Shown here one piece after another: positions 10,617 to 38,853 of a stretch of 38,853 nt of DNA. A model generated the notes under the pieces. That model was not told where the DNA came from and did not search any database. It worked only from the letters and a program-made list of their open reading frames with translations. Position numbers and translations under genes: made by a program. Numbering within the stretch: the first letter of the stretch is position 1; each line of letters opens with the position of its first letter. The stretch is from a virus. The DNA lies in UHGV virus genome UHGV-0046264; one strand, given 5' to 3'.

Positions 10617-11378
10617 ATGGAGACTGTTTTTGACGCACTGAAAGCAATGGGAAAAGCCACATCCATAGAACTTGCTGCGCGACTTGATATCAGTCGTGAA
10701 GAAGTGCTGAACGAACTATGGGAACTGAAAAAGGCTGGTTTTGTTGATAAAAGCGCGTACACCTGGCGTGTGGCTGATAACAACGTTCAGCAGGAACAGC
10801 CAGCGCAGGCAGAACTGCCGGAAGAAATCACCACAGCAACAGTAGCGAAAATCTCAGAGTGCGATTTAACCGCGACGATTGAACAACGAGGACCACAAAC
10901 GGCTGATGAGCTGGCTACATTGTTTGGTACCACATCACGCAAAGTGGCTTCAACGCTGGCAATGGCAATCAGCAAAGGTCGTCTGATTCGCGTAAATCAG
11001 GGCGGTAAATTTCGTTACTGCATACCGGGCGATAATTTACCAGCAGAGCCGAAAGCAGCATCGGTAGCGGAAACTGATGGTAAGGCCTTTCCTCAGACCG
11101 CAGGTGTTGCGTTACCAGTACAGGAGGCTGCAACACAGGAAGATATTAAAACAGAAACTGTGGCGGACATTGTGCAGTCGCTGCCATCGTTTACTGAAAC
11201 GCGAGCGGATGACCTGGTTTTACCATCACTGCATATGGCAAACCGCGAACTGCGTCGGGCGAAAAATCATGTCCAGAAGTGGGAGCGTGTCTGCGCCGCG
11301 CTGCGTGAGTTGAACAAGCACAGGGATATTGTACGACAGATTACTGATTCTTCCCGCCATGTTGCATCGGAAAAGTGA
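10617..11378 (+). CDS. ydaW: YdaW-like protein (DUF1627 family, apparently intact), 253 aa
   Basis: ORF with GGGAGA ribosome binding site before METVFDALK; N-terminal winged-helix-like region; position after ydaV. K-12 carries a truncated version. Confidence 0.5.
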
Positions 11379-11393
11379 TTGCCGGAGGCACCT

Positions 11394-11816
11394 ATGGCAA
11401 AAGTATTTACACCAGAAGAGCGAGAAAAAATTAAAGGACAGGTTGTTGAACTTGTACCTCTGAGCGGTCGCGAGACGTTACGGCAACTGGAAGCCAAGAC
11501 AGGTGAGACAAGATATCTGATGAGTGTTCTCGCCAGTGAGCTGGTTGCCAGTGGCGATGTATACAACTCTGGTTACGGGTTATTCCCGTCTGAACAGGCG
11601 CGTAAAGACTGGCAAAACGCCCGCAAAAAACTATCGAGGGCAAAGGTGAAGAAACCTGCTGTAGTTGATCCGGACCTTATCTGGTCATTACCAGACGGAG
11701 AAATACGCCGCTATGACAGGCGTCTGAATATAATCTGTCGCGAGTGCCGGAAGAGCGAAGTCATGCAGCGTGTACTGGCGTTCTATCAGGGTAATTTTCA
11801 GGATGTGCTGTTGTGA
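11394..11816 (+). CDS. Hypothetical phage protein, 140 aa
   Basis: ORF with GGAGG ribosome binding site before MAKVFTPEER; no family recognised. Confidence 0.5.
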   Translation: MAKVFTPEEREKIKGQVVELVPLSGRETLRQLEAKTGETRYLMSVLASELVASGDVYNSGYGLFPSEQARKDWQNARKKLSRAKVKKPAVVDPDLIWSLPDGEIRRYDRRLNIICRECRKSEVMQRVLAFYQGNFQDVLL

Positions 11817-11978
11817 GCCAAATTAACAATCAGGGAACTGCGTGAACTGAAAGAGAAATCATAATCCAAATCTGAATAATTAAATTTAGCACTGTAAATA
11901 AAATTTAATCCTTAACCGGAGGGGGGGGGCTGCACCCTCAAAATATTAGGAGGCGGCCCGAAAGGGCGGTAATGAAAA

Positions 11979-12482
11979 ATGACTGAATTAACCAAAAAGC
12001 AATTAATCGAAGAAGCTAAATTAAAAATAGCGATTGAGAAATGCCACCCCAATTCAGGGATGGCACGGGTAGAGGGCGAATTATTCAAAATTGCTCTGGC
12101 ATCGCTGGAAGCAGAGCCAGTTGGTGATTTTTATGAATACAAACCGGATGACTGGTATCAGCGTTCGGCTGGAGATAAAGCGCCAAAATGGACGCCACCC
12201 TATGCCGTTTTTCCAGCGCCCGTAGTGCCGGAAGAAATGGATTTGCTTACATGCCATCTCGATGGTGTAACTGAAACATATGCTGAGGGATGGAACGCTT
12301 GCCGCGCTGCCCTGCTTCAGGGCAAAGGGGAGCCCGGGAAACAAGTTCGCGAATTGACAATGCTGGTTAAACAATTGGTTAGTCAACTGAAGAAACCGAA
12401 ACCGGGCTGCAAATTGCCGGATAAAGTGATGGACTACCTGGAGCGAAGCGGACTTATAAGCGTGGAGGATGTTTTACGATGA
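11979..12482 (+). CDS. Hypothetical protein, 167 aa
   Basis: ORF preceded by a G9 homopolymer and a GNRA hairpin between the AGGAGG and the ATG; no family recognised. Confidence 0.5.
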   Translation: MTELTKKQLIEEAKLKIAIEKCHPNSGMARVEGELFKIALASLEAEPVGDFYEYKPDDWYQRSAGDKAPKWTPPYAVFPAPVVPEEMDLLTCHLDGVTETYAEGWNACRAALLQGKGEPGKQVRELTMLVKQLVSQLKKPKPGCKLPDKVMDYLERSGLISVEDVLR

Positions 12483-12571: not shown

Positions 12572-13766
<1,195 letters not shown>

Positions 13767-14575: not shown

Positions 14576-15097
14576 TGAAAATTCCTCAAGTTGGAGAGTT
14601 CTGGAACATTAAGGCGAGGTGGCAGTAATGCACCATCTGTAATCTTTTGATACTGACGTAATCGGACCTGATGTGCAACGCCTTGCAAGTATGTAACTCA
14701 TTGAAAACGATCATTTTTATCTATTGACATCAAATGGCAAACTGTCATTGTGCGGCTATGGCAAGTGGCAAATGCTTATAAATCATATGGATATAAATAG
14801 TACAGAAAGAGTTGTTTTCTCTAGGATATGAGTATACGCCCAATGCTGATTGGTTGAATTTTGTTCTTGTTTTAAAGGGTAAGAGTTTAAAGTGTTGGCA
14901 GTGATGTATTGGATAGTTAGAATTGCTGTGGGTGCTTGAGGCTATCTGCCTCGGGCATGAACACCAAAGGCAGATAGAGAAAAGCCCCAGTTAACATTAC
15001 GCGTCCTGCAAGACGCTTAACATTAATCTGAGGCCATATCTATGCGACACATAGAGATTAGCCTCTTACGGACCGAAAGGTCAAGGAGAAGCAGGCT

Positions 15098-15223
15098 ATG
15101 AAGCAGCAAAAGGCGATGTTAATCGCCCTGATCGTCATCTGTTTAACCGTCATAGTGACGGCACTGGTAACGAGGAAAGACCTCTGCGAGGTACGAATCC
15201 GAACTGGCAGACGGAGGCTCTGA
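15098..15223 (+). CDS. Hok/Gef-family type I toxin homologue, 41 aa as encoded (C-terminus shorter and divergent)
   Basis: MKQQKAMLIALIVICLTVIVTALVTRKDLCEVRIRTG matches the Hok/Gef/RelF transmembrane core, then RRRL-stop; AAGGAG ribosome binding site 9 nt upstream; structured leader with a 10-bp stem at 14933-14968. Confidence 0.7.
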   Translation: MKQQKAMLIALIVICLTVIVTALVTRKDLCEVRIRTGRRRL

Positions 15224-38298: not shown

Positions 38299-38853
38299 TG
38301 CAGGACATACAACAGGAAACGCTGAATGAATGCATTCGTGCGGAGCAGTCGGCCAGCGTGGTGCTCTGGGAAATCGACCTGACCGAGGTAGGCAGGGATC
38401 GCTACTTTTTCTGTAATGAGCAGAACGAAAAAGGTGANNNNNNNNNNTTTTCTGTAATGAGCAGAACGAAAAAGGTGAGTCTGTCACCTGGCAGAGTCGG
38501 CAGTATCAGGCCTATCCCATTCAGGGGAGTGGATTTGAGATGAACGGCAAGGGCAGTGCTGCCCGTCCGACACTGGCGGTCTCTAACCTGCACGGCATGA
38601 TCACCGGGATGGCGGAAGATCTGCAGAGTCTGGTCGGCGGAACGGTGGTCCGGCGTAAGGTTTACGCCCGCTTTCTGGATGCGGTGAACTTCGTCAACGG
38701 AAACAGCGATGCCGATCCGGAGCAGGAGGTGATCAGCCGCTGGCGCATCGAGCAGTGCAGCGAACTGAGCGCGGTCAGTGCCTCTTTTGTACTGTCCACG
38801 CCGACTGAAACGGATGGCGCTGTTTTTCCGGGACGTATCATGCTGGCCAACAC
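38298..38853 (+). CDS. Minor tail protein, lambda L homologue (partial; runs off the window; interrupted in silico by an N-gap with duplicated flanks)
   Basis: [32 protein letters not shown]...; after the gap the downstream frame reads ...GMITGMAEDLQSLVGGTVVRRKVYARFLDAVNFVNGNSDADPEQEVISRWRIEQCSELSAVSASFVLSTPTETDGAVFPGRIMLAN, as I recall lambda L. Confidence 0.8.
38438..38447. other. Assembly gap (N10) flanked by a 31-nt direct duplication
   Basis: TTTTCTGTAATGAGCAGAACGAAAAAGGTGA occurs on both sides of the N run (38407-38437 and 38448-38478). Confidence 0.9.

Follow-up and report, generated by a model that had tools for sequence, protein, structure and literature searches.

A probable hairpin-bridged ribosome-binding site reused as a cassette leader in Escherichia and Shigella prophages, with a hypermutable and probably inconsequential G run in one lineage

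Introduction

In bacteriophage T4, genes 38 and 25 possess a split ribosome-binding site (RBS), in which the Shine-Dalgarno (SD) sequence lies 22 and 27 nt from the AUG, respectively, and an intervening hairpin reduces these distances to 5 and 11 nt; mutations that destabilize the hairpin lower translation (Nivinskas et al., 1999; Malys and Nivinskas, 2009; reviewed in PMC3014915). The leader described here occupies a 162-bp gap between two genes of a 38,853-nt viral sequence (UHGV virus genome UHGV-0046264, called the window below and always meant in its full length). As in T4, the genes served are phage genes, the SD is too far from the AUG (25 nt, compared with 22 and 27 nt), the gap holds a stable hairpin consisting of an extra-stable, tetraloop-capped stem, and the effective spacing predicted with the hairpin formed is short (6–9 nt, compared with 5 and 11 nt). 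Unlike the T4 sites, the leader has a GNRA loop, belongs to lambdoid or Rac-like prophages rather than to T-even phages, and is not tied to one gene, the same unit being reused ahead of many unrelated ones.

At the genomic level, the PeSLs of T4-type phages are mobile regulatory cassettes composed of an early promoter and a terminator-like stem-loop (PMC2839356; PMC4122927). The leader shares with them a conserved intergenic stem-loop motif that is found at the borders of variable genes, mostly of unknown function, and at junctions of insertion, deletion or replacement. By contrast with the PeSLs, it contains no promoter-like or terminator-like site, and its conserved parts are SD motifs and a hairpin placed between SD and start codon. 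The split RBS of T4 genes 38 and 25 is the closest described mechanism, and the PeSL cassettes are the closest genomic phenomenon.

Two further systems resemble individual parts of the leader. Homopolymeric contingency loci, as in Neisseria, Haemophilus and Campylobacter, undergo slipped-strand phase variation, and the boxB element of phage lambda (GCCCU-GAAAA-AGGGC) is the nut-site hairpin bound by N. A literature search by sequence (GCCCGAAAGGGC) returned only unrelated papers, on a Thermus CRISPR and on Flock House virus, and no description of the element.

Genomic Setting of the Leader

The window is a Rac-like lambdoid prophage. An Rfam scan of the window located RalA, the antitoxin sRNA of the RalR system, at 1608–1786 (225 bits) and the sok antitoxin RNA at 14930–15100 (104 bits), beside a hok-type gene, and these two toxin-antitoxin RNA loci help to identify the element as Rac-like. 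The prophage also carries a RecE-sized ORF. A twin locus is present in an identical E. coli chromosome (NZ_AP027971; L001), where the annotated gene order is racR, ydaS, ydaT, a hypothetical gene, ydaV (DnaC-like), DUF1627 and DUF977, followed by the 162-bp gap, the 167-aa orphan, a convergent KilA-N gene and hok. RefSeq marks the same start for the orphan in this chromosome (ATG 11979). In the window, an IS5-type transposase ORF (338 aa, 12718–13734, minus strand) separates the orphan from the convergent KilA-N gene; the twin, identical elsewhere, has only about 120 bp at this site, so the insertion is recent and specific to the window's lineage.

The features of the region are collected in Table 1. 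The preliminary description of the locus had reported nine consecutive G about 50 nt upstream of an ATG that opens a 167-aa ORF, and direct reading of the window confirms the run, the ORF and the distance between them. The orphan protein has no Pfam match. A scan of both strands between 11300 and 12750 found no promoter-like site and, within the gap, no terminator-like site. The gap is therefore most simply taken as internal, and we infer that it forms a leader within the early rightward operon. Nothing in the leader reached an Rfam gathering threshold, the sole match at E values up to 10 being RgsA, with 8.9 bits against a gathering threshold of 88.4.

Table 1. Features of the leader and its flanking genes (window coordinates).
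Feature	Position	Strand	Remarks
DUF977 gene	11379–11816	+	Stop codon just 5' of the 162-bp leader
Module A, AT-rich intergenic	11860–11917	+	Homology to other prophages starts near 11860
Imperfect inverted repeat, CTGAAT-AATTAA-ATTTAG	11872–11889	+	Inside module A
TCCTT	11909–11913	+	In module A; invariant in 57 unique leaders
SD1, GGAGG	11918–11922	+	Overlaps the first two G of the tract
Putative hairpin 1, GAGGG (11919–11923) : CCCTC (11935–11939)	11919–11939	+	RNAalifold consensus; loop holds most of the G run
G9 homopolymer	11921–11929	+	Length-polymorphic; lineage-specific replacement of GGGATTT
Filler between SD1 and SD2	11923–11947	+	Mosaic breakpoints on both sides; each flanking module found without the other
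SD2, AGGAGG	11948–11953	+	25 nt 5' of the ATG; AGGAGA or AAGAGG elsewhere
Hairpin 2, CGGCCC-GAAA-GGGCGG	11954–11969	+	Six stem positions, GNRA tetraloop; directly follows SD2
Spacer TAATGAAAA	11970–11978	+	A/U-rich, 9 nt, between hairpin 2 and start codon; no SD-like motif
Orphan ORF, 167 aa	11979–12482	+	Gene served by the leader; falls in phrog_660 (PHROG 660)

Distribution and Modular Structure

The leader was found by BLAST in 1,289 of 5,426 complete E. coli genomes (~24%), at up to five places per genome, and pattern scans added more than 150 further copies in IMG/VR. Among 185,579 species representatives the only other carrier was Shigella flexneri, which leaves no deep phylogenetic covariation to draw on. 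Many of the matches are homologous only over about 11860–11977 and are flanked by different genes. When the downstream ORFs were clustered and scanned, the leader was seen to precede DUF7167 (60 aa), DUF4014 (72 aa) and DUF551-type mosaic proteins, and also a Q-like antiterminator, an unnamed 158-aa family and the phrog_660 orphan, which amounts to at least six unrelated families. The 162-bp gap is best explained as a modular, non-coding translation-initiation leader that has been recombined ahead of unrelated accessory genes in Escherichia and Shigella prophages, and it marks the exact points at which accessory-gene cassettes are swapped in Rac-like prophages. A looser pattern scan (CCCTCAAAA...AGGAGG...TA) gave mostly chance matches in unrelated metagenomic viruses.

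The BLAST alignments break at 11860, at the end of SD1 (11922), at the start of SD2 (11942–11948) and at 11977. Individual alignments stop at query position 143 (11922) or start at query positions 163–169 (11942–11948), and in matches of the EDL933 type (H13–H18) homology ends at 11922. The modules on either side of these breakpoints also occur alone. Module A, that is, the AT-rich stretch together with TTAACYGGAGG, is elsewhere the ordinary RBS of another gene (GGAGGTATATCTATG...), and the unit made of AGGAGG and the hairpin is found directly after the stop codon of another gene (GATTAATGTCAGGAGGCCGCCCGAAAGGGCGGTAATGAAAAGTG...). SD1 is thus the working SD of that different gene in related prophages (L015, L060, L076 and others). 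The breakpoints and the separability of the modules place the G run in a 25-nt filler between two SD motifs. The preliminary description had taken AGGAGG as the only good SD of the leader; the motif is present, but it shares the leader with the GGAGG of SD1.

The imperfect inverted repeat of module A reads CTGAAT-AATTAA-ATT(T/C)AG at homologous positions and is replaced by CACTGAAAATTTAAATCAGAAGTG in other leaders. This AT-rich imperfect palindrome may serve to bind a protein or fold into a weak stem.

Hairpins of the Leader

The hairpin next to the start codon had been recognized as GCCC-GAAA-GGGC (11956–11967). These letters are there, but the true unit is longer, comprising the 16 nt of hairpin 2. 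Its consensus is CCGCCC-GAAA-GGGCGG, and the G.G mismatch at stem pair 2 is specific to the window's lineage. Weaker values are predicted for the window than for the consensus, both in stability (−11.2 vs. −15.5 kcal/mol) and in pair probability (~0.5 vs. ~1.0). The 169 full leaders contain 12 hairpin haplotypes, or 13 when L244 is added, a copy with an intact stem and the non-GNRA loop GGCA. The stem CCGCCC/GGGCGG occurs in 126 copies (SD variants counted) and the window-type CGGCCC in 20; the other variants are CCGCCT, CCGTCC, CCGTCT, CCGTTC/TGGCGG, CTGCCC, GGGCAG, CCACCC/GGGCGG and CCACCC/GGGTGG. The last of these (L246) is a compensatory change from GC to AU, for which L248 supplies the one-sided intermediate.

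Over the 13 haplotypes, pairing is kept in 94.9% of the stem cells, compared with 35–56% when the partner columns are slid, and the stem survives U.G changes at four positions (seven U.G cells). The covariation itself is not significant, as the single compensatory pair was equalled by 110 of 500 shuffles and the RNAalifold term was −0.04, and it is suggestive only. Wobble changes fit the plus strand at four sites and the minus strand at two, a weak bias drawn from too few sites. The whole leader folds no better than shuffled sequence (z = −0.29), which means that structure cannot be argued from the window's sequence alone.

Hairpin 1 was considered as a functional structure and rejected: its GATGG variant is uncompensated in 13 loci, and its pairs show no covariation.

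Two copies (L249:448–520 and L032) have no gene after the hairpin and an SD decayed to AGGAAA; in L249 the stem is seemingly extended (GAAACCGCCC...GGGCGGTGGTTTC). Both may be remnants of leaders that have lost their cassette.

The G Tract

Apart from the tract, no G/C run in the window reaches 8, in keeping with the original remark that G runs of such length are uncommon. An independent and identically distributed sequence is expected to hold 0.14 runs of 9 or more per window, and 2.25 Mb of fetched sequence, for the most part from phages, contained just 15 further G/C runs at least 8 long. The G9 run is uncommon, not extraordinary. Among 49 IMG/VR copies found by anchors flanking the tract, 35 read GGGATTT, GGGATTC, GGGGTTC or GGGATGC at these seven bases, and a pure G run is confined to the sub-lineage joined to the MTELTKKQ gene. 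In the same sub-lineage AAAACATC is replaced by AAAATATT, and CCGCCC by CGGCCC.

Tract length, which the preliminary description had proposed to compare across isolates, is not invariant, and G7, G8 and G9 are all seen. In complete E. coli genomes the census gave 10 genomes with exact G7, ~85 with G8, 10 with exact G9 and two more with one mismatch, and none with G10. The corresponding counts for G7, G8, G9 and G10 were 6, 7, 1 and 0 in IMG/VR contigs and 1, 3, 1 and 0 in metagenome contigs. G8 is the modal allele (~85 of ~109 genomes), and the G9 of the window is the longest and a minority allele. One IMG/VR contig (L202:7–115) reads G11, with GG in place of the CT of the CTG that follows G8 and the total length unchanged; the longer run is due either to a rare substitution or to an artefact of sequencing.

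Different lengths are found between identical 1.2-kb flanks (G9 in the window and G8 in L012; G7 in L014 and G8 in L236 and L239), and each length is met again on diverged haplotypes. The length is concordant among replicate or near-identical assemblies: three ST2747 assemblies all have G7, and KN13-4 and KN12-1 both have G9. Variation within identical flanks, together with this agreement between replicates, identifies the tract as a genuine mutational hotspot that slips recurrently. In practical terms, it is a truly length-variable site, from G7 to G9, that gives rise to single-base discrepancies between assemblies. The narrow range could reflect selection on length.

The tract lies outside every plus-strand ORF of at least 40 aa, and no start codon occurs after it before 11972. 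In leaders modelled with G5 to G12, the SD is unpaired with a probability of 0.28–0.45 and the AUG with one of ~0.57, the changes being small and non-monotonic; across G7–G9, hairpin 2 has a modelled occupancy of 0.38–0.53. Predicted folds allow the G run to pair with the GCCC of hairpin 2. On these models the effect of the tract on expression is likely small, and the G run and the C-to-G stem mutation would at most cut the occupancy of hairpin 2 by way of this competing pairing.

A Probable Split Ribosome-Binding Site

The preferred reading, to which we give a probability of roughly 0.55, is that of a modular leader whose hairpin bridges a split RBS and which is reused ahead of unrelated genes, the G run being a slipping filler that takes no part in the mechanism. 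The leader presents a strong SD (SD2, AGGAGG), followed at once by the 16-nt GNRA hairpin, a spacer of 6–9 A/U-rich nt and the start codon. If the hairpin forms in the mRNA it would loop out 16 nt, so that the linear distance of 25 nt between SD and AUG would become an effective distance of ~9 nt, which is usable. Probably, then, the hairpin brings a distant RBS near the start codon. The proposal that it shortens the spacing between SD and start had already been made for the locus and is plausible by comparison; both the loop-out and the placement in the early rightward operon are deduced from geometry, predicted stability and the analogy with T4 genes 38 and 25. The G9 run would stand outside this mechanism; the 25-nt filler that holds it separates an orphaned GGAGG, farther upstream, from the SD in use. 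The run would have arisen in one sub-lineage, by G's replacing GGGATTT, and now slips among G7, G8 and G9.

The layout, a strong SD farther than ~15 nt from the start codon (a gap of 25 nt in the window) and a stable hairpin that abuts the SD, is repeated in 169 copies. Start codons follow the hairpin after 6 nt (29 copies), 7 nt (64), 8 nt (2) or 9 nt (50), so that in 145 of the 157 callable copies the effective spacing would be 6–9 nt, within the range of ~5–11 nt; the copies are closely related, and this figure amounts to about a dozen independent junctions rather than 145. The starts marked in RefSeq agree, with 7 nt for DUF7167, 6 nt for DUF4014 and 9 nt for the orphan. No alternative SD is found near the start codon: the spacers (TAATGAAAA, TAGTTAA, TAAGAA, TAGTGAA, TAAGACA and others) contain neither GGAG nor GAGG. 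The main exception in spacing, the one class with an 11-nt spacer (10 copies, before the Q-like gene), bears a GGAG of its own. For a split RBS, this geometry is a stronger argument than covariation. What counts against it in the window is the weakened hairpin, with its mismatch and its pair probability of ~0.5.

If the reading is correct, a mechanism that has so far been described for two genes of T4 would also apply to a leader carried by roughly one in four sequenced E. coli genomes, and the starts that gene callers set 25 nt away from the only strong SD would be accounted for.

Competing Explanations

The alternative that survives best, though we regard it as unlikely, denies the hairpin any translational role. 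The leader would be conserved only as a young, frequently recombined mosaic junction serving as a homology patch for RecET or Red, and initiation would proceed through the A/U-rich spacer or by coupling. The coincidence of the breakpoints with the edges of the leader modules fits such a junction, as do the near restriction of the leader to Escherichia and Shigella, the covariation that falls short of significance and the RecE-sized ORF of the window's prophage. So does the persistence of the unit beside a second SD, in front of the Q-like gene, or with no gene after it (L032, L249), from which it follows that the unit may be retained for reasons beyond SD bridging. However, a junction of this kind would not account for a hairpin-to-start distance held at 6–9 nt in unrelated cassettes, nor for the longer-spaced class having gained its own SD. 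The stem pairing, at 94.9% against 35–56% for slid columns, and the compensatory pair with its one-sided intermediate also argue against it and for the hairpin-bridged RBS.

A narrower doubt concerns the ninth G of the window, which might have entered through an error in sequencing or assembly, the true allele being the common G8. G8 is modal, L012 carries it between flanks of 1.2 kb identical to those of the window, and the window has one base more than three deposited phage genomes that are nearly identical to it. There is also a run of 10 N at 38438–38447; the window sequence is thus not fully finished, which bears on how its homopolymer lengths are judged. Nevertheless, exactly G9 occurs in ten complete genomes, among them the independently assembled, near-identical KN13-4 and KN12-1, and VE-V10-F has G9 in a stretch of 321 bp identical to the window. 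An error is therefore doubtful, somewhat more so than the junction without a translational role.

A role for hairpin 2 as an RNA operator that binds a protein is improbable, whether as a nut site of the boxB kind, recognized by an N-type antiterminator, or as the target of a translational repressor covering the SD and AUG. The core GCCC-GAAA-GGGC does resemble lambda boxB in its short GCCC/GGGC stem, its GNRA-type loop and its place in an early-operon transcript of a lambdoid prophage, and its high conservation and its several copies per genome (up to five places) would suit an operator. Yet the leader hairpin has a tetraloop where boxB has a pentaloop, its loop sequence is not strictly kept (GGCA is found on an intact stem), and no boxA accompanies it: of the 32 matches to YGCTCTTWA in the window (up to one mismatch), none falls within 11800–11980. 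A nut site would moreover be expected once, just past each early promoter, whereas the hairpin lies deep in the operon, after the replication genes (ydaV, DUF1627 and DUF977). It sits between SD and start codon ahead of cassettes, in more copies than would suit a nut site, and it keeps a constant position with respect to start codons and not to promoters.

Still less credit is due to an inhibitory leader, in which the invariant UCCU (11909–11912) would pair with the AGGA of SD2, enclose hairpin 1 and mask the SD until opened. This pairing is part of the RNAalifold consensus (columns 45–48 with 84–87, in 57 of 57 sequences) and recurs in the minimum free energy folds of several copies. The helix, however, has only 4 bp and is invariant, without covariation, and the SD keeps a modelled unpaired probability of 0.25–0.67. 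At other loci SD2 and the hairpin stand without module A, so that UCCU would seem dispensable there.

We consider it very unlikely that the G run is a phase-variable switch, in which slippage among G7, G8 and G9 would toggle or tune the 167-aa gene. Like a contingency locus, it is a G/C homopolymer of 7–9 that varies in length where the surrounding sequence is the same, and its lengths are seen again on diverged haplotypes. Its pairing with the GCCC of hairpin 2 is conceivable from predicted folds, and modelled occupancy of the hairpin is ~0.4–0.5 in the lineage and ~1.0 in the consensus. Unlike the tract of a contingency locus, it is placed outside reading frames and is not flanked by promoter hexamers, no promoter-like site being present, and no ON/OFF consequence is predicted for it. 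The AUG is 50 nt farther downstream, most relatives have GGGATTT at the place of the tract in the filler, and between G5 and G12 the modelled accessibility of SD and AUG hardly changes and follows no monotonic course. The host is E. coli, an enterobacterium that is proficient in mismatch repair and rarely uses homopolymer switches. Of the two roles offered for the tract in the preliminary description, that of a hotspot for slippage or error stands, in view of the variable length, while that of a switch is not supported, given the tract's position outside ORFs and promoters and its flat modelled accessibility. The G run should not be taken as a regulatory switch without experimental support.

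Least credible of all is a mobile translation cassette in which the split RBS doubles as the homology patch for a shuffling of accessory genes by RecET or Red-type recombination and, in one sub-lineage, the hypermutable G7–G9 run, in competition with the hairpin, stochastically and heritably tunes the orphan through RNA structure; were it true, it would be a translational counterpart of the T4 PeSL cassettes and a phage-borne contingency locus that acts via RNA structure and not via frame or promoter spacing. On balance, the leader is probably an RBS bridged by a hairpin and employed repeatedly in front of cassettes, and in one lineage it carries a hypermutable G run that is probably inconsequential.

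Coding Sequences at the Leader Border and an Atypical Carrier

In several copies (L017, L019, L088, L229 and others) the first 6–8 codons of the gene (MTELTK or MAELTK) travel with the leader and the remainders of the proteins differ. Examples include DUF551 mosaics and a truncated ORF of 14 codons that is followed by a GTG restart. These shared beginnings indicate that some mosaic junctions lie just inside the coding region and not at the start codon.

A small ORF within the leader, in the frame that ends at the conserved TAA after the hairpin, was considered and discarded: it has no ATG, GTG or TTG start, and the variation from G7 to G9 shifts its frame. A mini-ORF of four codons (ATG AAA AAT GAC TGA, 11972–11986) opens 2 nt past the hairpin and runs across the ATG at 11979 in another frame. 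Its stop codon is lost to a point change in L075, where an out-of-frame ORF of 61 aa results.

An Escherichia-type leader with 87.7% identity is also present at 11316–11419 of PP818812.1 (H109), beside an Ead/Ea22-like gene. This genome was deposited as Actinobacillus phage vB_Apl-pPE4, and the presence of the leader suggests an E. coli-type lambdoid phage or a misassigned host.
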